Of a stretch of 41,777 nucleotides of DNA, positions 1 to 39,930 are shown in pieces. The position numbers were made by a program, and so were the translations under genes. The notes beneath the pieces were generated by a model. The model was not told where the DNA came from. It ran no database searches and saw nothing but the letters and a program-made list of their open reading frames with translations. The stretch is from a virus. Positions within the stretch are counted from its first letter, which is position 1; each line of letters opens with the position of its first letter. Location of the stretch: UHGV virus genome UHGV-0060642. One strand, written 5' to 3'.

Positions 1-49
1 TTATCAATTTGTTGCAACGAACAGGTCACTATCAGTCAAAATAAAATCA
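1..49. promoter_or_regulatory. attL: attL P' arm (partial) with Int arm-type binding sites
   Basis: Sequence ...caggtcactatcagtcaaaataaaatcattatttgatttc... matches recalled lambda P' arm with arm-type repeats (aggtcactat, cagtcaaaat); lies immediately 3' of int. Confidence 0.85.
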
Positions 50-1120
50 TTATTTGATTTCAATTTTGTCCCACTCCCTGCCTCTGTCATCACGATACTG
101 TGATGCCATGGTGTCCGACTTATGCCCGAGAAGATGTTGAGCAAACTTATCGCTTATCTGCTTCTCATAGAGTCTTGCAGACAAACTGCGCAACTCGTGA
201 AAGGTAGGCGGATCCCCTTCGAAGGAAAGACCTGATGCTTTTCGTGCGCGCATAAAATACCTTGATACTGTGCCGGATGAAAGCGGTTCACGACGAGTAG
301 ATGCAATTATGGTTTCTCCGCCAAGAATCTCTTTGCATTTATCAAGTGATTCCTTCATTGATATCCCAAGAGCATCAACATGCAATGTTGTTGGGATGGC
401 AATTTTTACGCCGGTTTTGCTTTGCTCGACATAAAGATAGCCATCTACGATATCAGACCACTTCATTTCGCATAAATCCCCAACACGCTGCCCGGTAACA
501 ACAGCCAGTTCCATTGCAAGTCTAAGCCAACATGGTGATGATTCTGCTGCTTGATAAATTTTCAGGTATTCGTCAGCCGTAAGTCTTGATCTCCTTACCT
601 CTGATTTTGCTGCGCGAGTGGCAGTGACCGGGTTTGTTGTTATATGGCCTTCAGCTATTGCCTCTCGGAATGCATCGCTCAGTGTTGATCTGATTAACTT
701 GGCTGACGCCGCCTTGCCCTCGTCTATGTATCCATTGAGCATTGCTGCAATTTCTTTTGTGGTGATGTCTTCAAGTGGAGCATCAGGCAGCCCCCTCCTT
801 ATTGCTTTAATTTTGCTCATGTAATTTATGAGTGTCTTCTGCTTGATTCCTCTGTTGGCGAGGATTTTTTCGTAGCGATCAAGCCATGAATGTAACGTAA
901 CAGAATTATCACTGTTGATTCTCGCTGTCAGAGGCTTGTGTTTGTGTCCTGAAAATAACTCAATGTTGGCCTGTATAGCTTCAGTGATTGCTATCCTCCT
1001 GTCTCGGCCTAATCCAAACTCTTTACCCGTCCTTGGGTCCCTGTAGCAGTAATATCCATTGTTTCTTATATAAAGATTAGGGGGTAAATCCCGGCGCTCA
1101 TGACTTCGCCTTCTTCCCAT
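50..1120 (-). CDS. int: Tyrosine integrase, lambda Int type
   Basis: 356 aa; N-terminus MGRRRSHERRDLPPNLYIRNNGYYCYRDPRTGKEFGLG and C-terminal catalytic region (HELRSLSARLY...HLLGH...Y) match recalled lambda Int almost residue for residue; ATG verified. Confidence 0.97.
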   Translation of the reverse strand: MGRRRSHERRDLPPNLYIRNNGYYCYRDPRTGKEFGLGRDRRIAITEAIQANIELFSGHKHKPLTARINSDNSVTLHSWLDRYEKILANRGIKQKTLINYMSKIKAIRRGLPDAPLEDITTKEIAAMLNGYIDEGKAASAKLIRSTLSDAFREAIAEGHITTNPVTATRAAKSEVRRSRLTADEYLKIYQAAESSPCWLRLAMELAVVTGQRVGDLCEMKWSDIVDGYLYVEQSKTGVKIAIPTTLHVDALGISMKESLDKCKEILGGETIIASTRREPLSSGTVSRYFMRARKASGLSFEGDPPTFHELRSLSARLYEKQISDKFAQHLLGHKSDTMASQYRDDRGREWDKIEIK

Positions 1121-1316
1121 TTTTGATCCTCTTCAAAAGGCTACCTGTTACTGGTCGATTTAAGTCAACCTTTACCGCTGATTCGTGGAACAGATACTCT
1201 CTTCCATCCTTAACCGGAGGAGGGAATATCCTGCACTCGCGTACCCATCGACGAACTGTTTCAAGGCTTCTTGGGCGTCGCTGGCGTGCGTTCCACTCCT
1301 GAAGTGTCAAGTACAT
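1098..1316 (-). CDS. xis: Excisionase Xis
   Basis: 72 aa MYLTLQEWNARQRRPRSLETVRRWVRECRIFPPPVKDGREYLFHESAVKVDLNRP matches recalled lambda Xis; overlaps int start as in lambda. Confidence 0.95.
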   Translation of the reverse strand: MYLTLQEWNARQRRPRSLETVRRWVRECRIFPPPVKDGREYLFHESAVKVDLNRPVTGSLLKRIKNGKKAKS

Positions 1317-1340
1317 CGCAAAGTCTCCGCAATTACACGC

Positions 1341-1364
1341 AAGAAAAAACCGCCATCAGGCGGC
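1341..1364 (-). terminator. Putative rho-independent terminator on the leftward transcript upstream of xis
   Basis: Minus-strand hairpin ccgcc-tgat-ggcgg followed by a run of T (approximate coordinates). Confidence 0.5.
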
Positions 1365-1406
1365 TTGGTGTTCTTTCAGTTCTTCAATTCGAATATTGGT
1401 TACGTC

Positions 1407-1718
1407 TTATTCGATGCGCACTCCTGGTATTTCGCCTTTTGATATTGCGAAGTCATAAATTTGCGCAGCACTATACCCATCTCGCATCCATGAATCTAAT
1501 GCGCGAATAGCCTCGCTACGCTTTTTATCTTCTCTCTCATTTTTGATATCAACGAGGACATCAACGCAATTAAGGCAAATGTGGATTTTGTCCTTACATT
1601 CGATCATGGCGGCTTTACCATGATTTCCGCCACACAGTGAGCATAAATCTTCAGGGTCTGGCTGGTATTTCTGTAACGTTAGATGGTTGAATGTTGAACA
1701 GGCCATAATCATCTCCAT
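1407..1718 (-). CDS. Hypothetical Cys-rich small protein
   Basis: 103-aa ORF with several Met near the N-terminus (likely start at Met5, GGAG upstream); CSLCGG...C...CLNC cysteine pattern suggests a zinc-binding fold; no family recognised. Confidence 0.6.
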   Translation of the reverse strand: MEMIMACSTFNHLTLQKYQPDPEDLCSLCGGNHGKAAMIECKDKIHICLNCVDVLVDIKNEREDKKRSEAIRALDSWMRDGYSAAQIYDFAISKGEIPGVRIE

Positions 1719-1777
1719 AAAACAAAACTCGCCGTAGCGAGTTCAGATAAAAGAAATCCCCGCGAGTTCGAGGATTG

Positions 1778-2062
1778 TTATTCATTGCCGATATTCACCT
1801 TTATCGCGAACACCTTTACCGGTTTATCGCCGAAGTGCGGATGTGTGATTGTCTTGATTTCATATCCGTCATACGGAACATCAATTCTACGGCTGGAATC
1901 GTCGCGCTTCGGATATCCCTTTGTGATAATCAGGCGATCATACTCCCGGAACATAATTCGCTTATTCCAGTAGTCATTACACAGGCGATACTCTTCCGTT
2001 TTCTCTCTGCGAATCATGGCATCGAAGTATTCACCTTTAACGGCAAGTTGTAGGTTAGCCAA
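1778..2062 (-). CDS. DUF3850/ASCH-like domain protein, probable TTG start
   Basis: N-terminal segment LQLAVKGEYFDAMIRREKTEEYR resembles the DUF3850/ASCH N-terminal motif (EYFDA...G.KT.E.R); the track ORF begins with TTG at 2101, but an in-frame TTG at 2062 is preceded by AGGAGG with a 6-nt spacer; first ATG (Met29) would remove the motif. Confidence 0.6.
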   Translation of the reverse strand: MANLQLAVKGEYFDAMIRREKTEEYRLCNDYWNKRIMFREYDRLIITKGYPKRDDSSRRIDVPYDGYEIKTITHPHFGDKPVKVFAIKVNIGNE

Positions 2063-2639
2063 GGTTAACCTCCTGCGGCGGTTCTGCTGCAAAATACGCA
2101 ATACCTTTATCCCAGATGGATTTTATGGTCGTCCATGTGACTGGTACTTTAATTTCAATCCGCCCGCTACCGTCACAGGTATCGCAATCATCATCGCCAA
2201 AGCATTCCGGGCAGCTGATAAACGTAGTTTCTGAAAATTCACCGGATAGCGCACCCTTAGCGCCGTTCTCGGCTGTTAGTCTCTTCGGCACCATGACCCA
2301 ACCATCCGGAGTTACCGGAGAGTTGCCATTTACATCGAAGTTTGGCTCTGCGTCCTGAACCAGGAGGATGTAACCATTCTTGGCTGTATCAAGTTCTAAC
2401 GCCTCGGTGACGGTGCCGAAATAGCGATTACCTAAATCAGCATCACAAGTGCTTACATCAATGGAAACTTCCATGCCCTCGATTAATTCTGGCAAGTTGT
2501 AAGTTTGGCTTACAGGTTCGGCTTCCAGCGATGCCAGTGCGATTTCATAAGCCAGGCGCTCAATATTGTCTCGCACGTCCAGGCTGCCGATTCGCTCTCT
2601 GATTTCTTTAATCAGTTCTTTGTCGGTAAAAGTAGTCAT
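2055..2639 (-). CDS. Hypothetical protein with C-terminal CxxC...CxxCxGxG zinc-ribbon motif
   Basis: 194-aa ORF, ATG verified; motif SCPECFGDDDCDTCDGSGR near the C-terminus; acidic. Confidence 0.7.
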   Translation of the reverse strand: MTTFTDKELIKEIRERIGSLDVRDNIERLAYEIALASLEAEPVSQTYNLPELIEGMEVSIDVSTCDADLGNRYFGTVTEALELDTAKNGYILLVQDAEPNFDVNGNSPVTPDGWVMVPKRLTAENGAKGALSGEFSETTFISCPECFGDDDCDTCDGSGRIEIKVPVTWTTIKSIWDKGIAYFAAEPPQEVNLG

Positions 2640-2642
2640 GTG

Positions 2643-2930
2643 TTAGTCCTCATCCACTTCAACGCCATCTTTCAGCGTGATGCCGTGCCAATCATCAGCC
2701 CAACTGGTTAGCCCTGGCGCATCAATGCTAGGCATATAGACGCTTGCAGTGTGGTAGCCCTTATCGTTATCAATGCTGGCAACGTGCTCGCCGTTGTATG
2801 CGCTCAGCGTGTCCAGGACGCTATAAAACTTTCCTCCGGCTGCCCTGAAATCCTTTACAGCCTTCACAAGGCGATTCCACGCTTTTTCCTGTTCTGGCGT
2901 CAGGTCGATTAATTCCTGCAAAGTTGCCAT
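2643..2930 (-). CDS. Hypothetical protein
   Basis: 95-aa ORF with ATG start, tightly packed in the leftward early operon. Confidence 0.65.
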   Translation of the reverse strand: MATLQELIDLTPEQEKAWNRLVKAVKDFRAAGGKFYSVLDTLSAYNGEHVASIDNDKGYHTASVYMPSIDAPGLTSWADDWHGITLKDGVEVDED

Positions 2931-2931
2931 A

Positions 2932-3375
2932 TCACTCTCCTTTGATGCGAATGCCAGCGGCGCGGATTGCAGCGATGATCTCAGAAACTTTGTATGCCAT
3001 TACCGTTTGGTAATCATCGTGAAAATCTGTTCGATGAAGCATGCTGCTACGTTCCGGGAGCAGTATTTCCCGCGCTTCCAGTTCTGCAATGCGCTTTTTT
3101 GCTGCTTCCAGTTCATCCAGTAATTCCAGCACGGTAGCTGGATTGGCTGCGGTGATGAATTCAGCATTGGCCTGCTGTTCCATTTGGAAATCTTCATCGA
3201 AACCGCTTTCAGGATGCGCTCCTTCAATTCTGCAAATGGGAAGATATCCAACAACGTCACGATGAATTAGCGCATCATCACAATCAAATCGACTCTCTCC
3301 ATATTCGAGCGACCACACCCCACACGTTGCTTTCTCTGCCTTTTCACGCAGTGCCTGATAGTCAATTTCGCTCAC
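2932..3375 (-). CDS. Ead/Ea22-like protein (GTG start)
   Basis: 147 aa; segment ANPATVLELLDELEAAKKRIAELEA is typical of the Ead/Ea22-like family of lambdoid early-left regions; start codon GTG preceded by AAGGAGG. Confidence 0.7.
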   Translation of the reverse strand: MSEIDYQALREKAEKATCGVWSLEYGESRFDCDDALIHRDVVGYLPICRIEGAHPESGFDEDFQMEQQANAEFITAANPATVLELLDELEAAKKRIAELEAREILLPERSSMLHRTDFHDDYQTVMAYKVSEIIAAIRAAGIRIKGE

Positions 3376-3899
3376 TGGTTGCCTCCTTTGCGAAGCTGGG
3401 CGGCGAACTCGTTAAGTGATATGTAGCAATCTCCAAATGTTAACGAACCGCTCGACTGCATATGCTCCATAGCCATCTCTACCCCCTGCGCCCGTACTTC
3501 AGCCAGGAAAGCATCGGTGGCTGGGGTTTCTTCAAGCGCTCGCTTAACCTTTTCCTCAGCTTCGCAAATTGACTGAACCCAGAAGTCAGCGTGAGGTGGC
3601 CTGCCTGCCTTTTTTATCTCCGCACGAAGCTCAATTTGCTGAGTTACCGCAGATTTCAGTCTCACATTCTCCGCAGCCATCGCTGAAAACTTCTCGTGTG
3701 CCAACTTAACAGCTGCATCAGCCTGCTTAATTGACTCAATCGCTTTCTGGTGGTCTTCGGACAGAGCCGAAATCTTGGCCTCCGCTTCAGCAAATTTACG
3801 CACCAGATATTCAGCGTTTGTTTCGTTAACCATTAAATCTCGTGGGATGCATTTACCTTTCAGAAATCCATCCATCTCAATTAGTGACATTTGTTTCAT
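3372..3899 (-). CDS. Hypothetical coiled-coil protein, possibly Ea22 N-terminal-like
   Basis: Track ORF 3372-3917 begins with GTG; the first ATG (Met7, [12 protein letters not shown]) is preceded by a GGAG-like site; stop overlaps the downstream GTG start. Confidence 0.6.
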
Positions 3900-4093
3900 T
3901 TCTTCCCACTCCGCCACATCGCATTCAGATATTTGTTTTGATTTACTGATGGAAAAGAATTTCTCTTAAGTAATTCCTCTCTCGATGGCATTGGCTTTAC
4001 GCGTTGGCGAATAATCATTTCTGCCGGAAGAATGCTAGGATTGTATGCAAGTCCTCTCATGGTAAATTCCTCAGTCATTACTGATAGCGCCAT
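3896..4093 (-). CDS. Possible small ORF (65 aa)
   Basis: ATG ORF overlapping both neighbours by about 22 nt; no clear RBS seen; may be spurious. Confidence 0.3.
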
Positions 4094-4367
4094 AGCGTGA
4101 GCGGTAATTACGCAGGCGCGGGTCGATATATTCAGGGAATTTGTCTATTGTCGCTTTTCGCAACGGTCTCATTGCTGTTTCGTTTGTTCGGTCCTTCTCC
4201 TGTTTTAGCGCGAGTTGTATATCGCGTCGGTACATCCGTTCTGCTTTTGTTTCTGGTGTCATAGCAAGAAACGCGTCGAAATTGTTTTTGATATTTTCCA
4301 GCACCTCCGCCTTGGAGCTACCGGAGCAGTTGCGCGCGTCGTCCGCACCATACAGAGGCGCTGGCAT
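4071..4367 (-). CDS. Hypothetical protein
   Basis: 98-aa ORF with ATG and an AAGG upstream. Confidence 0.6.
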
Positions 4368-4390: not shown

Positions 4391-4978
4391 TCAGAAATGA
4401 GGGTAATCGTTCTGGCTGTAACCATAATCATCTGCATGATTCTGGCTTACGTTTTTAGAGCGATTGTCTTTATCTTTGAGGCTGGCAACCATGTTGGCGA
4501 TAGTTTCTGGTTGCTTGCCTTCCGCCTTTTCTTTAAGGGTTTGACCTGTTTGTGCAATAAACGGGATGCGTATTTCCATCTGGTAACTATCTGCGCCAGT
4601 CTTTTTGTTTGTGGTTAATACTTTCTGGAGCACTAACCCGATTTTCTTTCCATGAAACTCAGGAGCAACAAATTTACTGGCGGAAACCATATGTTGCGTT
4701 AACTGTCCAATCCCGGCACACCCCATCATGGCGTGAACGACATTTGCGCCAAATTTGTTTTCCGTTCCGTCATTTTTCTGAACACAGACGCTAAGATATT
4801 GGATTTTACGTCCGTCGTCGGATTCGCCAGAAAACTCAATAAATTTTGCACCTTTTTCTGATTGCTTGAGTTCTGCTTCAGTAATGGTAATGATATGAGC
4901 GCCAGTTTCATTAATAAAACCACCTTGTCCTGCGGTCAGTGCTGCTTCTTCGTTATAAGTAAAAATTACGTTGCTCAT
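4391..4978 (-). CDS. Putative ssDNA-binding protein, partner of the Sak4-like ATPase
   Basis: 195 aa; translationally coupled downstream of the Sak4-like gene; acidic/aromatic C-terminal tail ...DDYGYSQNDYPHF resembles SSB C-terminal tails; assignment by context. Confidence 0.55.
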   Translation of the reverse strand: MSNVIFTYNEEAALTAGQGGFINETGAHIITITEAELKQSEKGAKFIEFSGESDDGRKIQYLSVCVQKNDGTENKFGANVVHAMMGCAGIGQLTQHMVSASKFVAPEFHGKKIGLVLQKVLTTNKKTGADSYQMEIRIPFIAQTGQTLKEKAEGKQPETIANMVASLKDKDNRSKNVSQNHADDYGYSQNDYPHF

Positions 4979-5655
4979 GCGGCGTTTTCCTTAATTTGAT
5001 GAACATTATTGATGCCGTAGTAATCACAAACAGTGGCATCGACGAAAGAGAGATCGTTATCAATCTCATTGGAATCAAACATTCCCATTGGGGATTTAAC
5101 AGTGTCTGCACCGTTGTTTTTCGTGGTGAAAAAGAACTGGTCATCGCGGGTAAGAGTGCGAAGAACTATAGTAAACATGCCTTCGACAGTGATTTTTTCG
5201 TCCAGCATTTTGCCGATAGTCTTCATTTTCACACGCCCAACAGGGGTTTCTTCGGTATGGGCAAGAAAATAGACTCTCAGGTCATCAGGCGCATCCTGTG
5301 CAGCCTTAATGACCTCCCATGCGTGACGGCCTATCTCAGTGAATTTATCAAACGATTTTTCTTCTGAGCGGCGCATAAACTCATTACTCATCACATACTG
5401 GAAGTCATCAACAATAACGATTCTTTTCCCGTATTCGTGAGCACGCTTAATTACGGCAACTATTACGTCCCATTTGTCAGTGGTAACTACGGTTCCTTTT
5501 TTTGCTCTAGCATCCCATGCAAGCCAGTCTTTTGATTTAAATGGTAGCGGCTTGCCTATTGGTTTTATAAGTATTGCTTCCTCTGGATTGATATTTCTCA
5601 TGCTGGTTGATTTTCCGGTGCCAGACTCACCGAGTATTAATGTCGCAGTTCCCAT
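4975..5655 (-). CDS. Sak4-like RecA-fold ATPase (phage recombination protein)
   Basis: 226 aa; Walker A GESGTGKST at the N-terminus, Walker B RIVIVDDF; size and motifs typical of Sak4-family annealing ATPases that replace Red or Erf. Confidence 0.7.
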   Translation of the reverse strand: MGTATLILGESGTGKSTSMRNINPEEAILIKPIGKPLPFKSKDWLAWDARAKKGTVVTTDKWDVIVAVIKRAHEYGKRIVIVDDFQYVMSNEFMRRSEEKSFDKFTEIGRHAWEVIKAAQDAPDDLRVYFLAHTEETPVGRVKMKTIGKMLDEKITVEGMFTIVLRTLTRDDQFFFTTKNNGADTVKSPMGMFDSNEIDNDLSFVDATVCDYYGINNVHQIKENAA

Positions 5656-5663
5656 AATTTGCC

Positions 5664-5864
5664 TCAGAATGGTAATTCGGATGGGGAGGAAAGAAACTCG
5701 CGCTCATTCATGCGCTCTCTTTGCGCCTGCCATAAACAAAGTTGTTTCTTTGATTTATCTCCCGCTTTACGCCAGTAACGAGCCTCAGCAATGTGATATT
5801 CTCTTTTTAATCGACTTAACTCTGGAGTTTTCGCCAGTTCTACCGGAATCATTTTGACCTCCAT
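5664..5864 (-). CDS. Hypothetical protein
   Basis: 66-aa ORF, ATG start, overlaps the kil end by 16 nt. Confidence 0.5.
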   Translation of the reverse strand: MEVKMIPVELAKTPELSRLKREYHIAEARYWRKAGDKSKKQLCLWQAQRERMNEREFLSSPSELPF

Positions 5865-5962
5865 TTCCTGTAGGCTTCTACGGCCTCACGAAACATCTTT
5901 TCATCGCCAATAAAAGTGGCGATAGTGAATTTAGTCTGGATAGCCATAATTGTTTGATCCAT
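5849..5962 (-). CDS. kil: Host cell-division inhibitor Kil-like peptide
   Basis: MDQTIMAIQTKFTIATFIGDEKMFREAVEAYRKW matches the recalled lambda Kil N-terminus; overlaps the cIII 3' end as in lambda; start set at the internal Met of the track ORF. Confidence 0.65.
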   Translation of the reverse strand: MDQTIMAIQTKFTIATFIGDEKMFREAVEAYRKWRSK

Positions 5963-6095
5963 TTTTTGGGACTCCTGGCTGATTAAGTATGTCGATAAGG
6001 CGTTTCCATCCGTCACGTAATTTACGGGTGATTCGTTCAAGTAAAGATTCGGAAGGGCAGCCAGCAACAGGCCACCCTGCAATGGCATATTGCAT
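5931..6095 (-). CDS. cIII: CIII (protects CII from FtsH)
   Basis: MQYAIAGWPVAGCPSESLLERITRKLRDGWKRLIDILNQPGVPKNGSNNYGYPD matches recalled lambda CIII (54 aa); ATG at 6095 preceded by AAGGAG. Confidence 0.9.
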   Translation of the reverse strand: MQYAIAGWPVAGCPSESLLERITRKLRDGWKRLIDILNQPGVPKNGSNNYGYPD

Positions 6096-6154
6096 GGTGT
6101 GCTCCTTATTTATACATAACGAAAACGCCTCGAGTGAAGCGTTATTGGTATGCA

Positions 6155-6181
6155 TATAAAAAGGCCCTCACACTGGAGGGC
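6155..6181 (-). terminator. Rho-independent terminator in the leftward operon (tL-like)
   Basis: Minus-strand hairpin GCCCTC-cagtgt-GAGGGC followed by TTTTT. Confidence 0.6.
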
Positions 6182-6274
6182 AAAGAAGATTTCCAATAAT
6201 CAGAACAAGTCGGCTCCTGTTTAGTTACGAGCGACATTGCTCACATAGCAGACTCGTAAATCTGCTATAGGCGC

Positions 6275-6433
6275 TTATTCGCATCGCATGACAACATCAA
6301 ATTTTTCGAGATTACTTTGTCGCAACAATCCTTCTTCTACGCGGTCAGCTTTTCTATAATTATCAAATTCGAAATGTTTAATTACTTCTTTTGTTCCTCG
6401 CTCTATAACTTCAACAATGTATTTCTTATTCAT
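6275..6433 (-). CDS. Small ORF (52 aa) translationally coupled to the upstream gene
   Basis: Not in the ORF track (below its length cutoff); its ATG overlaps the upstream stop as TGATG; translation MNKKYIVEVIERGTKEVIKHFEFDNYRKADRVEEGLLRQSNLEKFDVVMRCE read directly from the sequence. Confidence 0.4.
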   Translation of the reverse strand: MNKKYIVEVIERGTKEVIKHFEFDNYRKADRVEEGLLRQSNLEKFDVVMRCE

Positions 6434-6729
6434 CATTCTTCACCAAGAGCTTTTCTGATTGCTGCAAGACCTTTATTAACAGCTCCATACCATTCTGGAT
6501 ATGTTGTCGTTGTTCTATTTTTGGTTTGCTTAAGTAATAACTGAAGTGCTTCGAGAAGGTCAGGTGCTGCCGCTATTAGATTGGCATCTTCAATGCATTG
6601 AACTTCCTCACAGATTGCAATATACGAACGCCAGCCTGCGCCATTTTCAAGTGAGTCAGCCTGGATGATTTTAATCTCATCGCCATCCATCATTATTTCC
6701 CACTTACCTTCAGTACCTTTAAATTCCAT
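6433..6729 (-). CDS. Hypothetical protein
   Basis: 98-aa ORF with ATG, in the position of lambda ea10; no family recognised. Confidence 0.65.
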   Translation of the reverse strand: MEFKGTEGKWEIMMDGDEIKIIQADSLENGAGWRSYIAICEEVQCIEDANLIAAAPDLLEALQLLLKQTKNRTTTTYPEWYGAVNKGLAAIRKALGEE

Positions 6730-6768
6730 GTTAGCCTCTGTTATTTATGACAAAAATAAAGGCTACCA

Positions 6769-6969
6769 TCAGGAAGCCTTGTTGTTCTGTTTACCAATTT
6801 CTCTGGCAATCATTGCCGTCGTTCGTATTGCCCATTTATCGACATATTTCCCATCCTCCATTACAGGAAGCATTTCTTCAGGCTTAACCATGCATTCCGA
6901 TTGCAGCTTGCATCCATTGCATCGCTTGAATTGTCCACACCATTGATTTTTATTAATAGTCGTAGTCAT
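6769..6969 (-). CDS. ral: Restriction alleviation protein Ral
   Basis: 66 aa MTTTINKNQWCGQFKRCNGCKLQSECMVKPEEM...DKWAIRTTAMIAREIGKQNNKAS closely matches recalled lambda Ral. Confidence 0.85.
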   Translation of the reverse strand: MTTTINKNQWCGQFKRCNGCKLQSECMVKPEEMLPVMEDGKYVDKWAIRTTAMIAREIGKQNNKAS

Positions 6970-7039
6970 AAGGATAGTCCTGGTATTGTTCCATCACATC
7001 CTGCGGATGCTCTTCGAACTCTTCAAATTCCTCTTCCAT
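6953..7039 (-). CDS. Small acidic peptide ORF (28 aa), lambda orf28-like position
   Basis: MEEEFEEFEEHPQDVMEQYQDYPYDYDY read from the sequence; ATG preceded by GAGGTGA; lies between N and ral; below the track cutoff. Confidence 0.4.
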   Translation of the reverse strand: MEEEFEEFEEHPQDVMEQYQDYPYDYDY

Positions 7040-7047
7040 ATCTCACC

Positions 7048-7347
7048 TCAAATAAGTGGTTTGCTGCCTAATTTCATTTTCTGGCGACCAACACAAGTCA
7101 CACCCATTTCACTGCGTGGCTTGCGGTAGTAAATACGATTCTGTTTACTCTCGACTTCTTCTGCCTTCTTGCAGCGAAGGCTTCCGAGTGATGCTGCTTT
7201 ATCTGCTCTGACGCAACCAGAGAGCTTTAGCGCAATTTTTCGCGCCAGTCGCTGCTCTTGCATTGCCTGTTCACGTTGAGCCTGTCTGCGTGCTCTGCGG
7301 CGATTTCTGGCGTTATCATCAGCCAGATATGTAATGACTACTGTCAT
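7048..7347 (-). CDS. N: N-family transcription antiterminator
   Basis: C-terminus ...GVTCVGRQKMKLGSKPLI resembles the lambda N C-terminus; arginine-rich motif NARNRRRARRQAQREQ near the N-terminus; start at internal ATG (7347) preceded by GGAGG. Confidence 0.8.
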   Translation of the reverse strand: MTVVITYLADDNARNRRRARRQAQREQAMQEQRLARKIALKLSGCVRADKAASLGSLRCKKAEEVESKQNRIYYRKPRSEMGVTCVGRQKMKLGSKPLI

Positions 7348-7658
7348 GTTGACCTCCGATGAAACAACTTTGGAATTGATAGTGATTGCAAAGTGGTTTC
7401 TGGCCCCTCGAACTGAGGGGCAGAAAGAGCATCTCGCCACCTAATAGGTCGATGCTCGGATCGAGAGATTTAATTAACCTCGGTTTTGAAGTTATGCATT
7501 CACATAAATCCTCCTGTTGCATGTGCAGCATTGGCTGTGTTTGGCGGCTGCATTTCGCCCATGGAATTGACTTTGGCGGTGACGCGCCGGATGCTTATCT
7601 TCCGGTTGCCGTCGTGCAGCTGCACTTCACGTCACCCCAAAGCCAACTACTCTTTGGT

Positions 7659-7699
7659 TCCCGCATTTCGGCGGGACAATCCCATCAATGTTAAAGAGC
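7659..7699 (-). promoter_or_regulatory. nutL: nutL (boxA plus boxB hairpin)
   Basis: Minus strand reads GCTCTTTAACA (boxA-like) then hairpin TCCCGC-cgaaat-GCGGGA; the same boxA and boxB occur in nutR. Confidence 0.7.
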
Positions 7700-7744
7700 C
7701 TGCCAATCTGTTCCGTTTGGCTACCAGCGTCCTGCTGATGGCTT

Positions 7745-7830
7745 AAATTTAAGATCTCTTTAATTAATGGTCAAGGGTATTTTTGAAGAAAACTTAAATT
7801 TTCTTTCGTAACTTAAGTTTGGCTTTGATT
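7745..7830 (-). promoter_or_regulatory. OL/PL region with three P22-type 18-bp operators
   Basis: ATTTAAGATCTCTTTAAT, ACTTAAATTTTCTTTCGT and ACTTAAGTTTGGCTTTGA fit the same half-site pattern as the OR operators (approximate coordinates). Confidence 0.6.
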
Positions 7831-7840
7831 TTTAAAGGAA

Positions 7841-8781: not shown

Positions 8782-8787
8782 GCAAAT

Positions 8788-9183: not shown

Positions 9184-9205
9184 CAACATCCAACGAGGTA
9201 ATTAT

Positions 9206-32963: not shown

Positions 32964-33293
32964 TTAGTCATCCATGGATGGATTGAGCTTATCTCGTGTT
33001 GATGTGGCAATTTTCCCAACATTTTTCAACCAAGATTTTAAGAAGGATATGTCGTCCTTAATATCATGAATATCCTCATTCTTTATACGATCAACCTTAT
33101 CCTCTAGGCTCTCTATAGAACGCTCAATGCTAGACAGAGAGATTTTTAAGTCTCCTTGATCACGTTCCAGTGAGGATTTGAGAGCACAATATTCGTTTTC
33201 TAGAATTCCTATTTTTTTTGTTAGAGAGTGCATTCGATACTCATACACCAAACCAGAAACGACTAATGCAGCCAACAGAAACCATTCAAGCAC
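32964..33293 (-). CDS. Uncharacterized single-pass membrane protein with coiled coil (cassette gene C)
   Basis: 109 aa; GTG start preceded by AAGGGGG with about 5-nt spacing; N-terminal hydrophobic helix LEWFLLAALVVSGLVY, remainder predicted coiled coil. Confidence 0.65.
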   Translation of the reverse strand: MLEWFLLAALVVSGLVYEYRMHSLTKKIGILENEYCALKSSLERDQGDLKISLSSIERSIESLEDKVDRIKNEDIHDIKDDISFLKSWLKNVGKIATSTRDKLNPSMDD

Positions 33294-33315
33294 ACTAACC
33301 CCCTTAGTTGATATT

Positions 33316-33735
33316 TTATTTGTATGAAATCAACGAGTTAAGCTCCCTCTCATTTAGAGATTGGAATCTTTTTTCAGTTATATCAATGATGGCTGGCAAT
33401 AGTTTTTTTACCTTCTCATGACCATCAGGTTTAATGATAGCAATGATCTGGATATGAATTGGATATGTGTTGTGTACCGCAAATATCAAAAAGTTATCGC
33501 TAACTCTACGATGTATTGGCGTTGTTTTTAACCAAGGATCATCTACTCCAGGGATCCTGATGTGCGACTTGTAAATTCCCGATAAGACGGCGTGATGGTT
33601 TCTCTCAAACCCACCAATCTTACCAAGATAAGCTGAAACGGTGCCTCTGTTTTTGTAGTTTGCAAGAGCCTTCGCAAAGTATTGTTCTAATGGTCCAGCC
33701 GCTGCATCTACAACAATGCTTATGCGGTTTTCCAT
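33316..33735 (-). CDS. Uncharacterized protein, possibly YafO-like toxin fold (cassette gene B)
   Basis: 139 aa, ATG; segment SDNFLIFAVHNTYPIHIQIIAIIKPDGHEK resembles the recalled YafO C-terminal region (...HLVYCQG...LLIAILKPEPHK); weak and unverified. Confidence 0.65.
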   Translation of the reverse strand: MENRISIVVDAAAGPLEQYFAKALANYKNRGTVSAYLGKIGGFERNHHAVLSGIYKSHIRIPGVDDPWLKTTPIHRRVSDNFLIFAVHNTYPIHIQIIAIIKPDGHEKVKKLLPAIIDITEKRFQSLNERELNSLISYK

Positions 33736-34319
33736 TTTGGTGCTTCCATGCCAAATCTTTTATGTGAATCTTCAACTGATTTCTTGAATGAAGCCAACTC
33801 TTCTTCAGTGAACTCTTCAGGTTCAGCATATGATAGTGGTATGTGCTGCATTGCTAGCGTCACAAGCCCCATAGTTAGCCTTTTGTATTCTATAAAAGTA
33901 TTTATTGAGTGGTTTTTCATTGTTGTAAGAGTTGACATATGGGGCTTCCACGCATCGCTGTTCTCAGCGATGAAGAAGGTATACAACAGTTTCGCGATAC
34001 CATAATCAAGCTTAGATATTTGATCGTTCAACATATCTACATCGTCATGTTGAATATCAAGTGAGGAAATATCTTCTTCCGTACCATTACTTAATAGGTC
34101 AATGAATGTAATGTACTTTTTGCAAACTTCCTCTACAGGTGACATAACGCAGTAGATCTTGCTAAGAGCTTCAGAAGCCTGTTTTTTAGACAAAGAGCCG
34201 CTATGACTGCGATCAAAGTCTGAAATTGAACGCTCGATAGATGTTGATATGTCAGAAAAAACGTTTTCAATTTTTCCTGGCTCTTGATTCAGGATGGCCA
34301 TAACGCCTATCTCAATCAC
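33720..34319 (-). CDS. Uncharacterized acidic protein (cassette gene A)
   Basis: 199 aa from GTG at 34319 (AAGGT upstream) or 193 aa from ATG at 34301; overlaps gene B by 16 nt; about 42 bp downstream of mnt on the same strand. Confidence 0.6.
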   Translation of the reverse strand: MIEIGVMAILNQEPGKIENVFSDISTSIERSISDFDRSHSGSLSKKQASEALSKIYCVMSPVEEVCKKYITFIDLLSNGTEEDISSLDIQHDDVDMLNDQISKLDYGIAKLLYTFFIAENSDAWKPHMSTLTTMKNHSINTFIEYKRLTMGLVTLAMQHIPLSYAEPEEFTEEELASFKKSVEDSHKRFGMEAPKWKTA

Positions 34320-34361: not shown

Positions 34362-34610
34362 CTATCTGGTCTCGTACATTTTTTTCAGGGTTTCAAACAC
34401 CATCTTCTTAACAATTTCTGCTTGCTGATCAGCCAAGCGTTCAGCTTCGTCTCGATAGCCTGCAATCGGTGATGGCTTTGAGAGAGCATCCTGAACGATT
34501 TGTAATAACTCAGAGTTCATTGACCTTCCGTTAGCCTCTGCTCTTAATTTCAATTTTTCTCTTACTTCCAAAGGCATACGGAAGTTAAAGTGCGGATCGT
34601 CTCTAGCCAT
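34362..34610 (-). CDS. mnt: Mnt repressor (ribbon-helix-helix)
   Basis: MARDDPHFNFRMPLEVREKLKLRAEANGRSMNSELLQIVQDALSKPSP... matches recalled P22 Mnt. Confidence 0.93.
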   Translation of the reverse strand: MARDDPHFNFRMPLEVREKLKLRAEANGRSMNSELLQIVQDALSKPSPIAGYRDEAERLADQQAEIVKKMVFETLKKMYETR

Positions 34611-34700
34611 GCCATCACCCCAAGTTAGTGTATTGACATGATAGAAGCACTCTACTATATTCTCAATAGGTCCACGGTGGACCTATATTGTGAGGTGAAT
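34611..34700. promoter_or_regulatory. Divergent Pant/Pmnt region with Oarc and Omnt operators
   Basis: TTGACA, 17 bp, TATATT; Oarc-like ATGATAGAAGCACTCTACTAT; palindromic Omnt-like AGGTCCACGGTGGACCT (approximate coordinates). Confidence 0.85.
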
Positions 34701-34859
34701 ATGAAAGGAATGAGCAAAATGCCGCAGTTCAATTTGCGGTGGCCTAAAGAAGTATTGGATTTGGTGCGTAAGGTGGCGGAAGAGAACGGGCGATCTGTTA
34801 ACTCTGAGATTTACAAGCGAGTGATGGACAGCCTGAAGAGAGAGGGGATTACGGTATGA
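34701..34859 (+). CDS. arc: Arc repressor
   Basis: MKGMSKMPQFNLRWPKEVLDLVRKVAEENGRSVNSEIYKRVMDSLKREG matches recalled P22 Arc; GAGGTGA RBS. Confidence 0.93.
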   Translation: MKGMSKMPQFNLRWPKEVLDLVRKVAEENGRSVNSEIYKRVMDSLKREGITV

Positions 34860-35125
34860 AGGTGTCATTGCTTGATCGTTCTTTACAATTTTTGTCTGGC
34901 GCAATCATTGTAGTTTGCTTGCTCGTGATTTTTACATCGTTAATCAATATGTATCAATCAGGGGAACGATTGACAAAGACGATAGAGGAAAAAAAATCAG
35001 TCTCAAATTACGAAGTATCACATGCACATAACGATTTAGTAGAAAGCCTTGACCGTATTAACAAGAGGCTTGACGAGACAAATATGCTACTTAAGCAAAT
35101 TCAAAATGAAGTGGAAAAACGTTGA
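34856..35125 (+). CDS. Uncharacterized single-pass membrane/coiled-coil protein coupled to arc
   Basis: 89 aa; ATGA overlap with the arc stop; hydrophobic helix GAIIVVCLLVIFTSLINMY then coiled coil; not present between arc and ant in P22 as recalled. Confidence 0.65.
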   Translation: MKVSLLDRSLQFLSGAIIVVCLLVIFTSLINMYQSGERLTKTIEEKKSVSNYEVSHAHNDLVESLDRINKRLDETNMLLKQIQNEVEKR

Positions 35126-35155
35126 AGCCCCAACTGCTGTAACAGTCAGGGCTTC
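35112..35155 (-). terminator. Possible terminator of a sar-like antisense RNA (opposite the ant 5' region)
   Basis: Extended hairpin GAAGCCCcaACTG...CAGTcaGGGCTTC; on the minus strand it is followed by AACGTTTTT (approximate coordinates). Confidence 0.4.
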
Positions 35156-35187
35156 GGTATCAACAAAACTTACGAGGTATTATTGAT

Positions 35188-36078
35188 ATGTCAAGCTTAG
35201 CAAAGTCAACTGTAAATTGCACTAATAGCATCATCATTTCTGACGTCAAGATTCATATGGATTCAGAGGGGCGTTACTCGCTTAATGACCTTCATGTAGC
35301 GTCTGGAAAGGAGGAAAAACATCAGCCAGCTTTCTTCATGCGTAGAAATGAAACTATTGAATTGATTAATGAAATTTTTAATTCTGCGGATATGCAGAAT
35401 AAGAATCCCGTCCTTTCTAAGAAAGGTAGATATGGTGGAACCTACGTGTGCAAGGAGCTTGTTTACTCCTACGCCATGTGGATTAGCGCAGCCTTTGCGC
35501 TGAAGGTTATCCGTGCATATGACGCAATGGTTACTACCACACAAGAAAGGAGGGCTATTGGCGGTAAAACTTCAGTAGCTGAACGCACACCGCTACGCGA
35601 TGCAGTAAACATGCTGGTAGGAAAGAAAGGACTTCGCTATGACGATGCATACAATATGGTTCATCAGCGTTTTGGTATTGACAGCATTGATGAACTTTCA
35701 ATTGAACAAATCCCGCTGGCCGTAGAGTACATCCACAGGGTAGTGCTTGAAGGCGAGTTCATCGGCAAACAAGAGAAGAAAGCAAACGAGCTTTCTGCAA
35801 AAGAAGCAAACAGCCTTGTATGGTTATGGGATTATGCCAACCGCTCACAGGCATTATTCCGCGAACTGTATCCGGCGCTAAAACAAATTCAATCGAACTA
35901 TTCCGGCAGATGCTACGACTACGGTCATGAATTCTCGTATGTTATCGGAATGGCGAGAGACGTTTTAATCAATCACACACGAGATGTTGATATCAATGAG
36001 CCAGACGGACCAACGAATCTTTCCGCATGGATGAGACTTAAGAATAAAGAATTGCCTCCTTCAGTACATAACTACTGA
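35188..36078 (+). CDS. ant: Antirepressor Ant (KilA-N domain)
   Basis: 296 aa; N-terminal KilA-N-like region ([31 protein letters not shown]); position after arc as in P22 immI. Confidence 0.85.
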
Positions 36079-36121: not shown

Positions 36122-36188
36122 TGCCCAAAATTCACCGTAGCCATGCTGCGGCGATTCCTTGTATCTGGAGCAAATTAAATGACAGACA

Positions 36189-36689
36189 TTACCTACTCAA
36201 CAGATGGTCAGCAACCATGTTTGCTGCCTTATAAGCTATAGCCGCTTCATCAATGGTGTTGAATCTCCCAAGGGTTATGTTTTTACCTGAGACATTTATC
36301 TGAGCTTGCCATTGATTTCTGGCTTGACAGAAAGTTACCCCCTTGATTCCAGCATTGCTATTTCGAGGTCCGACATTTAATGCATTTACGACTCTGCTAA
36401 CATCCCTAAGGTTTGAGATTGCGTTATTTCTTCTGTTTCTATCAATGTGGTCAATCTCTTGTTTGGGCCATTCGCCATATACATACAGCCAGGCAAGTCT
36501 ATGTGCAAAATATCTTACGCCATCAATATTAATTGCGTTATATCCATAAGAAATTGTGCCAGCAACTTTCCCAACAGCACCTCTGGCGCTTAATTTCTTT
36601 TTCCAAGTGAAAATTCCTGTTTCTTTATTGTAATCGAGAACCTCCATAAGGCGCTCCCGAGTTACTACCTCGTGACGTCTCTTACTCAT
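36189..36689 (-). CDS. HNH endonuclease with AP2-type DNA-binding domain (homing-endonuclease-like)
   Basis: HNH signature [26 protein letters not shown]2-like [40 protein letters not shown]; start at internal ATG 36689 preceded by GGAG. Confidence 0.8.
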
Positions 36690-36702: not shown

Positions 36703-39417
36703 ATGTTTATTATGCCAGAACAATTATACAACGTAGTTGTTTCACAACCAAGTCAGTTATTTACTTTAGCTCGCTCGTTTAAAGCAAATGCCAATGGCAA
36801 AATTTATATCGGTAAAATTGACACTGACCCGGTAAATCCTGAAAACCAGATTCAAGTTTATGTAGAGAACGAAGATGGCTCTCACGTTCCTGTTGCACAG
36901 CCAATCGTCATCAATGCCGCTGGGTATCCAGTATATAACGGACAGATTGCCAAATTCGTAACCGTGCAAGGCCATTCTATGGCTGTTTACGATGCTTATG
37001 GCACTCAGCAGTTTTATTTTCCAAATGTATTAAAATACGATCCAGATCAGTTTGGCCCAGACTTCAAAGAGCAGTTATCTCAATCAGGAGCATACATTAA
37101 TGATGATTCAAAAGGTGATGCATTAATTGGGGTAAGGCAGCCATTTACCGGGGCTGTAACTATAACTCAGCATGAAAACAATGCTCTTTTCTTAAATGTA
37201 AAACAATTCGGAGCAATTGGGGATGGGAAATATCATCCATTATCTGAGAGGTTTTCTTCAATTTCTGAAGCAAAATCCTTATATCCTTTTGTTGACTCAT
37301 TATCTCAGTCAATAGACTGGGCCGCGTGGCAAGCTGCCCTTAACACAGGAAAGGTTATTTATGGTACTGATAATGCGTATGTAATAACGGATACGTTAAC
37401 ACCTGTTTCTGGTGGTGGGATAATTGGTCTTGGTGTGGGCAAATGGGTCTCCGGATATACTGCAACATTTGCTCCTGATATTACCACAGGGACCACATTC
37501 CTGATGTACGGGGTAGGAAATAAAAAATATACTGTAGATTGTGTTTCTAATATGGATGTTAGTGGTGGTGTGGTTTCTAATCCATCTTCCGAAGACCCGT
37601 ATACAACAACAGCACCTGCGTCATCATATGATTTATTGGATTTTACTAACGGTGATGCTAATGGGACTACAAGAGCCACGCTTAAACCATTCTCTGCCGC
37701 AATATTGATGCCTGAGACAGGATGTGTTCGCCTTGAGAACTTTCGTGTTGTTCCATATTTCAATGGGCTGGATGGTTATAAAGACATTGCAAATACCGGT
37801 CTTGGCGATGAGTGGGATGTAGGTATTTGGTCACGTGCGTCTTTTGGCAATGAATACCGCAATTTGCAGGTGGTTGGATACTGGCGCAAGACGGCACTTT
37901 TAAAAACGAACATTCCTGTATCTGGCACGCTGGCTGCTCAGGGCGAGGATGAAAACTATTATCACTGTAGATTCCAGGGATTCAAGGGTGTTTCGATCCG
38001 CGCCAATGATGTATTCCGAATTACAGCGGTAACGTCCAGCACTATCGAAATCCCATGGTCAGCAAGCCACACCTTCGAAACGTCCGGAGTTTTAAGATCT
38101 GGAGGCAGGAATTTCACTTATTCAGGATTATCCGTATCCGGTGATAAGTTAGTATTTACTGGAGTGTCTAACGCTTCTGAGGCAACAGTAGGTTCTACTA
38201 TACGGCGAAATGACATAGATAACTTTGGTATGGCGGGAACGCAATTTTTCGATTGCTACATTACCAGCCTGTATCACCACACACATCTGCTTGCCACATC
38301 GCAATACCTGTCTCAACCATTCAGCCGACCATCAGAGTGTATGGAGGTTTCAGGGGAACCAGTTCGCGGTGTACAGGTACATGCAGGAACCATTCAGGGA
38401 TGGGATGATGTTCTTATTCATCTGCATGACTGTGGAAATATGAACTTTTACAGTACATATTTCGAAAGCCAGCAAGCATATGTAACTATAAATGGTGGTA
38501 ATGCTATTGGTTATGGAGCACGTATGATAGCTTCCCGGCAATCAACAAGCTCATTACCATATGCAGCAGGGAATACACGAGTGCTTAGAATGGTCGGGTG
38601 CTCTGAAGGCAATGGCGTTGACTGGGGTCCTGTATTTAACAACTATACAGGAGGAAGATATAATTCTGGAGACGGTGTATTTAACCCCCGCGATGCATTT
38701 ATAGACCATAAATCTCTTCCTGAGCAGTCAGGAGGTGAGTCAAGACTCGTATCACAAAAAGGAAATGCCAGAGTAGTATGTGGTGTTGGTAAAACTGTAC
38801 TGCTTGGACCAACGTCAGGAGATTGTAATTTACAGAGTAATACCGGAAGTTTAAATATTAGAAGTGGGATAAGAGTAAGAGTCGGTCACGCTGATGGAAC
38901 AGACTGGTGGTTGGCAGATGCTAATAAAATAGCTCCTGTTGATGATAATGTTAAAGCTATTGGACAGCCATCAAACAGATGCTCTGTTATCTATGCAGGA
39001 ACCGGGTCAATCAATACATCAGATGAAACTCTTAAAACAAGATATGATATTCTTAATGCAGAGCGTGATGCCGCTATTGAAATAAAGTCAGTCATCTATA
39101 AATTTAAATTTAATGACTCAATTAATCACAAAGGAATTGAGTCGTCCAGGTATCATTTTGGCGTTGGCGCTCAAACTGTAGGGGATATTCTTAGAAAGCA
39201 TGGTTTAAATCCTGAGCAATATGCTTTTTGGTGTTACGATGAATGGCCTGACGTATGGGATGAAGAGGTGATAACTGAAGAGAGCACAGATCCTGATACA
39301 GGTGAGAAAATTTATTCTCAATATAAAACAGGAGATATGATTCTTGTAAAAAAAGCAGGAGGACGCTACGGAATTCGTTATGACGAATTGGCTATGTTTA
39401 TATTAATGGCAATGTAG
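36703..39417 (+). CDS. Tailspike: P22-type head-binding domain, central beta-helix domain, C-terminal intramolecular-chaperone (S74-like) domain
   Basis: N-terminus ...[49 protein letters not shown]...[15 protein letters not shown]...NVLKYDPDQ matches the P22 gp9 head-binding domain; C-terminus ...[11 protein letters not shown]...[23 protein letters not shown] resembles auto-cleaving chaperone domains of T5 pb1 and K1F endosialidase; alternative ATG at 36712. Confidence 0.88.
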
Positions 39418-39435
39418 TTGCAATAAATGCAGTAT

Positions 39436-39465
39436 ATCCCGCATAAAAATGCGGGATTGTTTTTA
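39436..39465 (+). terminator. Rho-independent terminator after the tailspike
   Basis: ATCCCGC-ataaaaat-GCGGGAT followed by TGTTTTT. Confidence 0.75.
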
Positions 39466-39725
39466 TCTGGTGTATTTATGAATTTTAAGTAAATTTTAGT
39501 ATTGATTACTGCATCGCAGTTAAAGCCTCATTACCTATGAGGCAAAACTGAGACACACAAGGCTTTGCACTGGATTGCAAGGCTTTGTGCTATCTGAGAT
39601 ATAGCAATGTTGGTTGCTCCACCTTTTCATCAAGCCAGTCCGCCCACCACTGCATCATTTCTCTGCGCTTATCGAGATACTGAGCATGGTTGTAAATTCA
39701 ACTAACCCAGTGAGTTGACAAAAAA

Positions 39726-39760
39726 TTAGCGCAAGAAGAAAAAAAATCACCTTGCGCTAA
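39726..39760 (-). promoter_or_regulatory. sib: sib/tI-like retroregulatory hairpin
   Basis: 10-bp stem TTAGCGCAAG ... CTTGCGCTAA around an A-rich loop, just left of the P arm as in lambda. Confidence 0.55.
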
Positions 39761-39930
39761 TGCTCTGTTACAGGTCACTAATACCATCTAAGTAGTTGAT
39801 TCATAGTGACTGCACATGCTGTGTTTTGCAGTATTATGTAGTCTATTATTTAGATCAAAACCATCATAACACATTGATATTGATGATTTTTCTTGTTTCT
39901 CATTCAGCTTTTTTATACTAACTTGAGCGA
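39761..39930. promoter_or_regulatory. attR: attR (lambda P arm, core GCTTTTTTATACTAA near 39907-39921, host B' arm)
   Basis: ctgttacaggtcactaataccatctaagtagttgattcatagtgactgca... matches recalled lambda attP P arm; core followed by CTTGAGCGAAACGGGAAGGTAAAAAG, recalled as E. coli attB right-side sequence. Confidence 0.9.

Follow-up and report, generated by a model that had tools for sequence, protein, structure and literature searches.

The window analysed here is the whole 41,777 nucleotide stretch of the viral record UHGV-0060642, of which positions 1-39921 were found to be phage DNA and positions 39922-41777 to be Escherichia coli chromosome. The phage part was interpreted as a single temperate prophage of approximately 39.95 kb, apparently intact, P22-like and lambdoid, with virion genes of the CUS-3 subtype and inserted at the attB-lambda site (with a probability of about 0.9). 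It is an ordinary member of the E. coli P22-like lambdoid phages, belonging to the genus Lederbergvirus in the broad sense, and represents a new combination of known modules of lambda, P22, CUS-3, HK620, Sf6 and Kapi1, not a new kind of phage. An initial annotation of the window had proposed a fine-grained mosaic of lambda and P22, and alignment against lambda, P22, HK620, Sf6, CUS-3 and Kapi1 showed such mosaicism to be real.

Attachment site and virion genes

The element was placed between ybhC on one side and ybhB/bio on the other. Its orientation is that of a lambda prophage, and its gene order (from the ybhC side through int, the early genes, the late genes and the tailspike to the bio side) matches that of a lambda lysogen. 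The features that define the two ends of the element are as follows.

1-49, strand not given: right part of the attL P' arm, equal to lambda 27763-27811 within a high-scoring segment pair of 97.7% identity
50-1120, minus strand: Int, lambda-type tyrosine integrase of 356 amino acids (aa), 98% aa identity along the whole of lambda Int
1098-1316, minus strand: Xis, lambda-type excisionase of 72 aa, 97% aa identity to lambda Xis
1336-1407, unstranded: boundary sequence forming the left recombination junction of the int module, common to lambda and all P22-like references
39716-39921, plus strand: attR, consisting of a lambda-type P arm and the 15 bp core (39907-39921), with both arm-type Int sites present
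39922-41777, unstranded: host flank comprising the attB B' arm, ybhB and a TnpB gene, 97.8% identical to the MS20659 chromosome, where ybhB and InsQ/TnpB are annotated before bioA
40012-40488, minus strand: ybhB, same as annotated for MS20659

Positions 1-1407 of the window aligned with lambda 27763-29169 at 97.7% nucleotide identity (blastn), base 1 corresponding to lambda 27763, which is situated inside the P' arm. The exact 15 bp lambda att core, GCTTTTTTATACTAA, was found in one copy only, at 39907-39921, and the attB B' arm that follows it is identical to that of the MS20659 chromosome. Integration at attB-lambda was concluded because this core is adjoined by the B' arm and ybhB. When aligned with MS20659, the attL core was seen to end 25 bp to the left of the position matching base 1, and it was therefore placed just left of the window. 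The P arm (39716-39925, compared with lambda 27534-27742) showed 87% nucleotide identity and retains P1- and P2-like arm-type Int sites.

Equivalents of all essential genes of P22 were found to be present as uninterrupted open reading frames (ORFs), and gene lengths, where checked, equal those of homologues in lambda, P22, CUS-3 and other annotated references. Regulators were also found together with their own sites, namely N with nut, Q with qut, and C2/Cro as well as Mnt/Arc with their respective operators. On account of these uninterrupted essential genes, normal lengths and paired regulators, the prophage is rated as probably inducible.

The virion genes form a complete cluster that is syntenic with that of P22, in the order 3-2-1-8-5-(orf)-4-10-26-14-7-20-16 ... 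9 (ORFs at 19106-32963 and 36703-39417), and have homologues in P22, CUS-3, Kapi1, HK620 or Sf6.

19106-20958, plus strand: terminase subunits TerS (CUS-3-type) and TerL (Terminase_3 family, Pfam)
20960-26086, plus strand: portal, scaffold, coat, a small ORF and gp4, with 97-100% aa identity to CUS-3 and 95-99% to Kapi1
26096-32963, plus strand: gp10, gp26, gp14 and the ejection proteins gp7, gp20 and gp16
36703-39417, plus strand: tailspike of 904 aa, a P22-type head-binding domain being followed by a central domain and, at the C-terminus, an intramolecular chaperone domain

The complete cluster, together with the head-binding domain of the tailspike (residues 4-116, Pfam Head_binding, E = 8e-64), agrees with the P22-type virion that had been proposed, and this gene content predicts a short-tailed (podoviral) particle. 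The resemblance to P22 is nevertheless one of family level for the portal, coat and gp4, which share 35%, 30% and 41% aa identity, respectively, with their P22 counterparts as against 99-100% with those of CUS-3; no P22 match was obtained for the scaffold (tblastn). The P22-like character of gp10 was confirmed (93% aa identity to P22, 99% to other references), but gp26, for which the same had been claimed, is instead a knobbed tail needle of the Sf6 type (96% identity to Sf6, Pfam Phage_tail_NK). Gp14 and gp7 are Kapi1-type, gp16 shares 94% identity with HK620, and gp20 does not exceed 55% identity to any of the six main reference phages.

TerS, with 99% aa identity to CUS-3, gave no blastp match to gp3 of P22 even at E ≤ 10, consistent with the assignment of this subunit to a family other than that of P22. 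The difference, however, extends to the other subunit, as TerL showed no significant similarity to P22 gp2 (best E = 0.14). TerS (19106-19546, plus strand) was observed to be a mosaic in itself, with residues 1-109 of CUS-3 type and the last 37 residues matching Sf6 gp1; matches to PDB entries 3HEF and 4DYC are confined to residues 110-146, and DNA homology to Sf6, HK620 and Kapi1 starts at 19458.

The N-terminal domain of the tailspike also gave PDB matches to the corresponding domains of the P22 and Sf6 tailspikes, while its C-terminus was identified as Peptidase_S74 (Pfam), an intramolecular chaperone of the endosialidase type. Its centre is without a close characterised relative, PDB matches being limited to the two ends of the protein and residues 164-248. 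A search for the receptor-domain DNA gave 15 of 5,426 complete E. coli genomes, among them UPEC_U013 with 100% identity, and a single phage record. This uncommon receptor domain could be a source of a glycan depolymerase.

Immunity, late control and lysis

The control regions of the prophage combine elements of lambda, P22, HK620 and CUS-3 type.

5849-5962, minus strand: kil, with a lambda-like N-terminal part and an HK620-type C-terminus (95% identity to lambda, 91% to HK620)
5931-6108, minus strand: cIII, lambda-type, with a 5' RNA thermometer, 98% aa identity to lambda CIII
6769-6969, minus strand: ral (restriction alleviation), 93% aa identity to lambda and 92% to CUS-3 and Sf6
7048-7347, minus strand: early antiterminator N of the CUS-3/HK620 type, 100% aa identity to CUS-3 N and 51% over 28% of lambda N
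~7659-7700, strand not given: nutL
7743-8581, minus strand: P22-type immC, with OL/pL at 7743-7824, c2 at 7865-8515 and OR/pRM/pR at 8516-8581
8596-8781, plus strand: cro, P22-type, 95% aa identity to P22 Cro
~8788-8833, plus strand: nutR, HK620-type
8890-9183, plus strand: cII, lambda-type
1329-1342, minus strand: CII-binding repeat of pI, TTGCGTGTAATTGC, identical to lambda 29091-29104
8899-8912, minus strand: CII site of pRE, identical to lambda 38369-38382
15441-15454, minus strand: CII site of paQ, identical to lambda
15154-15889, plus strand: lambda-type Q with the paQ CII site and pR'-qut-tR', Q having 100% aa and 97.4% nucleotide identity to lambda
16446-17693, plus strand: lysis cassette, with lambda-type S and R and HK620/Kapi1-type Rz/Rz1
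34362-36078, unstranded: P22-type immI, comprising mnt (minus strand), Pant/Pmnt/Oarc/Omnt, arc, an extra ORF, sar and ant

The initial annotation had described int, xis, att, cIII, ral, Q, pR'/tR', S and R as lambda-type, and aa identities of 98% (Int), 97% (Xis), 98% (CIII), 93% (Ral), 100% (Q), 99% (S) and 97% (R) bear this out. For kil, near-identity to lambda applies to the N-terminal two-thirds alone, lambda homology beginning at position 5860 (lambda 33228). The thermometer of cIII was identified as Rfam RF01804 (Lambda_thermo) at 6050-6108 on the minus strand (88.5 bits).

The assignment of c2, cro and their operators to P22 was upheld. C2 shares 92% aa identity with its P22 homologue, its N-terminal DNA-binding part being nearly unchanged, and the OR region differs from that of P22 at 5 of 111 aligned bases, with OL similarly close. 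The cassette was found to be flanked by nut sites of the HK620 type, because positions 7566-7746 are 97.8% identical to HK620 7660-7840, which contains the annotated nutL, and positions 8789-8892 are 100% identical to HK620 9424-9527. Early control was thus not of lambda origin as had been suggested, N being CUS-3-type and the nut sites HK620-type. Homoimmunity of the prophage with P22 is predicted; its host strain is a lysogen with attB-lambda occupied, probably homoimmune with P22, CUS-3 and Kapi1-type phages.

The gene at 8890-9183 had been taken for P22-type c1, but its product shares 98% aa identity with lambda CII compared with 48% for P22 C1. The CII repeats of pI, pRE and paQ are exact to the base, even though they are situated in three separate lambda-type patches, suggesting that the full set of CII targets has been kept despite the P22-type repressor being the one that would be induced.

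P22-type character was likewise confirmed for mnt and arc (34698-34859), with 84% and 93% aa identity for Mnt and Arc and 99% DNA identity for the Pant/Pmnt/Oarc/Omnt control region. The sar RNA was located at 35120-35186 on the minus strand (Rfam, 63.6 bits). For ant (35188-36078, plus strand) the proposed P22 origin holds for the P22_AR_C domain, which is 85% identical to that of P22 Ant; the protein is chimeric, with a KilA-N domain in place of P22_AR_N at its N-terminus. The extra ORF (34856-35125, plus strand, 89 aa, phrog_27312) separates arc from the sar/ant junction and overlaps the stop codon of arc. The same placement was seen in Salmonella phage Emek.

The 111 bp that follow Q, containing pR', qut and tR', are identical to lambda at 107 positions (96.4%). 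Comparison of Q to P22 gp23 (98%), HK620 Q and Kapi1 Q showed identities of 98-100%, and lambda-type Q can therefore be regarded as standard in the P22-like group. No tRNA genes of the kind located after Q in Sf6, Kapi1 and 720R6 were found in the window. In the lysis cassette, Rz shares 62% identity with lambda against 97% with Kapi1. The combination of integration at attB-lambda with lambda-type lysis and late control, as initially put forward, is in keeping with the att core, B' arm and ybhB on the one hand and with Q, S and R on the other.

A working scheme for the prophage was derived from homologues at every step. Integration and excision would be catalysed by the lambda-type Int and Xis on a lambda-type attP. 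Lysogeny would be established by lambda-type CII acting at pRE, pI and paQ, together with CIII, and would be maintained by the P22-type C2/Cro switch on P22-type operators, backed by immI (Mnt, Arc, sar and Ant). Early antitermination would depend on the HK620/CUS-3-type N with its matching nut sites, and the late operon would be switched on by lambda-type Q at pR'/qut/tR'. Predicted late products are a lambda-type holin and endolysin, headful packaging and T=7 head machinery of the CUS-3 type, the knobbed needle, the ejection proteins and a putatively glycan-degrading tailspike. By analogy with P22 and phiHS3, lateral transduction of the neighbouring chromosome could also occur.

Mosaic structure, relatives and alternative explanations

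A module map was prepared using blastn against lambda, P22, CUS-3, Kapi1, HK620, Sf6, JEP4, Huey and 720R6, supplemented gene by gene with tblastn. Lambda-like DNA was found in ten patches of 70-2339 bp, amounting to 5.4 kb at 87-98% nucleotide identity and covering int-xis-attP, kil'/cIII, ral, cII, the tR2 region, ninE, ninF and Q to Rz'. Greedy tiling with the nine reference phages at ≥93% identity yielded 23 matched pieces that account for 32,380 of 39,921 bp (81%). Named junctions lie at 1407, 5860, 8873, 15144, 17473 and 39716, and several of the switches fall in short stretches common to all or most of the references, listed below without strand.

1340-1403: matches 10 of 10 references at ≥90% identity, with lambda homology stopping at 1407
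6165-6242: shared boundary stretch
11798-11867: shared boundary stretch
12843-13006: shared boundary stretch (ninE)
13983-14120: shared boundary stretch (ninF)
18625-19101: shared boundary stretch
26086-27716: shared boundary stretch (gp10)
36132-36186: shared boundary stretch

Switches at such shared stretches form the pattern expected from homologous recombination at conserved boundary sequences. Exchange of this kind has been reported for HK620, Sf6, CUS-3 and epsilon34 (PMC2629481), and "bsq" features are annotated in reference phage records. Mosaicism is the norm for the P22-like group (PMC2629481; PMC11990801), with genus reviews underlining how high it is (PMC11990801). The mosaic would accordingly have arisen by the usual lambdoid exchange of modules, through homologous recombination at short conserved linkers that separate otherwise unrelated modules and, now and then, through illegitimate joining. 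A join of the latter kind, to judge from its appearance, would have left a relic of an int gene beside the lambda-type attP.

39548-39590, minus strand: hairpin equivalent to lambda 27473-27511, read from the sequence (RNA fold -17.9 kcal/mol, z = -3.1)
39566-39697, minus strand: relic of an HK620/Sf6-type int gene, made up of its 3' end and downstream DNA, 88% nucleotide identity to HK620 1-133

The relic is situated between the hairpin, which presumably occupies the position of lambda sib/tI, and the lambda-type P arm. Translation of the final 27 int codons (39617-39697) gives IYNHAQYLDKRREMMQWWADWLDEKVE, the C-terminus of HK620 Int. The relic/P arm junction is also present in MS20659, JEP4 and Huey, and the junction of relic, P arm, core and ybhB was detected in 687 of the 5,426 complete E. 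coli genomes (coverage ≥80%). Use of the relic as a marker for P22-like prophages at attB-lambda was considered and rejected: strain 134 carries the junction beside a long-tailed, effector-bearing prophage, and hence not all of the 687 genomes can be taken to contain a P22-like one.

A record with the exact mosaic was not found, none covering 80% of either half of the window when searched with megablast against 50,697 phage records and the 5,426 complete E. coli genomes; the best records were CUS-3, Kapi1 and UPEC_U013. An exact 30-mer of the tailspike scanned against IMG/VR was present in two contigs, in which the approximately 10-13 kb around the match share mainly the tailspike and host flank. 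The best phage of the reference panel, Kapi1, matched 20.5 of 39.9 kb at ≥90% identity (roughly 50%). For membership of a genus, the International Committee on Taxonomy of Viruses sets ≥70% genome-wide nucleotide similarity to a member, and accepted Lederbergvirus members also drop below 70% pairwise (bioRxiv 10.64898/2026.05.19.726188).

CUS-3 (CP000711; K1-specific, from E. coli RS218) shares 97% nucleotide identity over 6741-11829 (ral, N, immC, cII, O and P) and over 18624-27734 (terS to gp10), with 99-100% aa identity for TerS, TerL, portal, scaffold, coat and gp4 and 98-99% for the YafO-like gene pair and mnt. In CUS-3, however, the integrase is argW-type, the recombinase is Erf, Q is of the phage 21 type (no match) and arc is absent; the needle, gp14, gp20 and the tailspike, an endosialidase, differ as well. 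Only 41% of the prophage was matched by CUS-3 at ≥90% identity. Kapi1 (vB_EcoP_Kapi1, MT813197) shares the most DNA, including the replication genes, ninB, the hkbD-like gene to Q (with rusA and ninH), S/R/Rz, terL to gp7, the HNH endonuclease and the head-binding domain of the tailspike. It differs in its integrase/att, RecT recombinase, CII (43%), TerS N-domain, gp16, immI and tailspike receptor domain, and in tRNA genes after Q that the prophage lacks.

Lambda (NC_001416) has the same att core and the same sequence at all three CII sites, whereas its N, cI/cro, O/P, Red and head and tail genes are not present in the prophage. Gene order is that of P22 (NC_002371) throughout; int/att (thrW in P22), erf, gp24, the gtr genes, the tailspike receptor domain and C1 (lambda CII being present instead) set P22 apart, as do its two unrelated terminase subunits and the 30-41% identity of portal, coat and gp4.

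The same layout is found in P22-like phages and prophages with a lambda-type int at attB-lambda, UPEC_U013 among them. JEP4 (MT740315), Huey (PQ850609), vB_EcoP-720R6 (ON470605) and MS20659 possess a lambda-type int of ≥90% nucleotide identity, and these together with the UPEC_U013 prophage and phiHS3 carry CUS-3-type heads. The P22-like prophage of MS20659 is located between ybhC and ybhB, that of UPEC_U013 adjoins ybhB, and 720R6 lies beside ybhB/bio, its record having been deposited with the bio operon attached. P22-type immC is shared by MS20659 and JEP4. JEP4, Huey and 720R6 differ in the type of Q, Huey and 720R6 in the repressor, and the tailspikes are also different; no relative at this site spans 80% of either half of the window. 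Phage phiHS3, also P22-like, has been shown experimentally to integrate upstream of ybhC and to be inducible with mitomycin C, and was grouped with CUS-3, JEP4 and 720R6 (bioRxiv 10.64898/2026.05.19.726188).

Database comparison did not, strictly speaking, bring up the single well-known phage of this exact organisation that would have refuted the initial proposal, as no one record possesses the exact mosaic. The organisation itself is already known from JEP4, Huey, 720R6, the MS20659 and UPEC_U013 prophages and phiHS3. HK620 and Kapi1 already have the lambda-type Q, S and R, of which S and R recur in CUS-3 and Sf6; CUS-3 further possesses cII and, like Sf6, ral, and HK620 possesses cIII and kil. 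As every lambda module already sits in some described P22-like phage, unusualness is unsupported. The prophage adds one more case to the modular mosaicism already well documented for lambdoid and P22-like phages, poses no challenge to current understanding and is of practical value for annotation only.

An alternative explanation is that the element is a defective (cryptic) P22-like prophage, unable to excise or to form particles, with the mosaic being partly the outcome of decay. Damage is common among its E. coli relatives, the MS20659 prophage having an IS100 insertion and a split helicase gene and that of strain 702/18 an IS3 element in the tailspike, and decay could also be read into the 87% lambda identity of the P arm and into an attL core that is not visible in the window. 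The last two points equally weigh against an intact prophage, completeness of the left end leaning on the lambda and MS20659 alignments, although both arm-type Int sites of the P arm are kept. To these may be added that approximately 19% of the prophage (10 stretches, including gp20, the methylase and the tailspike receptor-binding domain) was unmatched at ≥93% identity, and that genes which appear whole from sequence alone may carry inactivating point mutations. However, no insertion sequence elements, frameshifts or truncations were found in any essential gene, the gene lengths compared equal those of functional CUS-3, Kapi1, lambda and P22, and conservation extends to the operators, the CII sites, Pant, sar, qut and the att core. 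A cryptic element was on this evidence considered unlikely.

An assembly chimera of reads from a lambda-like and a P22-like prophage of one strain was judged very improbable. Repeats able to mislead an assembler do exist, since a median of three places per E. coli genome match the left half of the window. The lambda-like DNA, however, is scattered in ten small patches that follow the correct lambdoid gene order, the same junctions recur both in isolated phages and in finished genomes obtained independently (JEP4, Huey, 720R6, MS20659 and UPEC_U013), and the junction from int relic to ybhB was seen in hundreds of complete genomes as given above. Least probable of all is a long-tailed, lambda-like phage with P22 immunity, comparable to the laboratory lambda-P22 hybrids; the lambda-type int/xis/att, cII, cIII, Q, S and R and the P22-type immC would suit such a phage, but none of the lambda head and tail genes has a similar counterpart here, matches to lambda being confined to its positions 27534-46213, and the syntenic P22-type virion cluster with its head-binding tailspike is complete at 19106-39417. 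A temperate, short-tailed and apparently intact prophage remains the preferred interpretation.

Replication, nin and accessory genes

The remaining features comprise the early-left, replication and nin regions and genes situated among or beside the late genes.

1407-4367, minus strand: early-left accessory (ea) patchwork, with best matches mixed between Kapi1, Sf6, CUS-3, HK620 and 720R6
2932-3375, minus strand: Ead/Ea22-like gene (Pfam Ead_Ea22)
4071-4367, minus strand: Abc2-like anti-RecBCD gene, in the ea patchwork
4391-5864, minus strand: HK620-type recombination module of hkaK, hkaL (Sak4-like ATPase) and hkaM, 98-99% aa identity to HK620 (Pfam AAA_24)
9481-11801, plus strand: replication genes O (CUS-3/Kapi1-type) and a DnaB-type helicase (P22 gp12-type)
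11874-15157, plus strand: mosaic nin region of ninB, ninE, a methyltransferase, ninF, a phrog_3973 gene, an HkbD-like gene, rusA and ninH
12970-13956, plus strand: C5 cytosine methyltransferase of 328 aa (Pfam DNA_methylase 6.6e-14; PADLOC methylase models)
18001-18561, plus strand: Rha-family regulator (Pfam Phage_pRha 4.8e-28)
32964-34319, minus strand: accessory genes in the sieA slot, namely an hkcB-like gene (97% to HK620) and a YafO-like toxin with a 199 aa upstream partner (98-99% to CUS-3)
33316-33735, minus strand: YafO-like toxin (Pfam YafO_toxin 1.1e-11), 98-99% to the CUS-3 gene
33720-34319, minus strand: 199 aa partner, overlapping the toxin gene, 98-99% to the CUS-3 gene
36189-36689, minus strand: HNH (AP2-domain) endonuclease, 99% to Kapi1 (Pfam HNH_3 2.5e-16)
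40597-41727, plus strand: IS200/IS605-type TnpB of the RNA-guided endonuclease family (NCBIfam guided_TnpB 2.3e-110)

The O protein (Pfam Phage_rep_O) shares 98% aa identity with CUS-3, and the helicase (P) 99% with CUS-3 and 90% with P22 gp12. Near-identity of ninD, ninF and ninH to lambda had been claimed, but no ninD is present and NinH shares 56% aa identity with lambda compared to 100% with HK620/CUS-3; ninF is 88% identical to lambda and closer to P22 (95%). NinE shares 92% aa identity with lambda. Between ninE and ninF is situated the C5 methyltransferase gene, which is absent from all nine reference phages. An ORF of 269 codons at 13103-13912 overlaps it in another frame of the same strand, has no Pfam match and is probably a chance ORF.

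ORF o95 of the ea patchwork was assigned to phrog_2821. Small unmatched ORFs at 2643-2930, 6275-6436, 6433-6729, 14118-14330 and 34856-35125 were considered as novelties and discarded, as each falls in an existing PHROG family.

For the 199 aa partner of the YafO-like toxin, nothing significant was obtained in Pfam, NCBIfam, PADLOC or PDB sequence searches, and no PADLOC model matched either member of the pair. It is conceivable, if doubtful, that this pair constitutes an uncatalogued toxin-based superinfection-exclusion or abortive-infection module of CUS-3-type phages. The HNH endonuclease gene is placed between ant and the tailspike and is absent from P22, CUS-3, HK620 and Sf6. In the host flank, TnpB is missing from strain 134 and 720R6, and a lone TnpB between ybhB and bioA was also observed in MS20659 and UPEC_U013.

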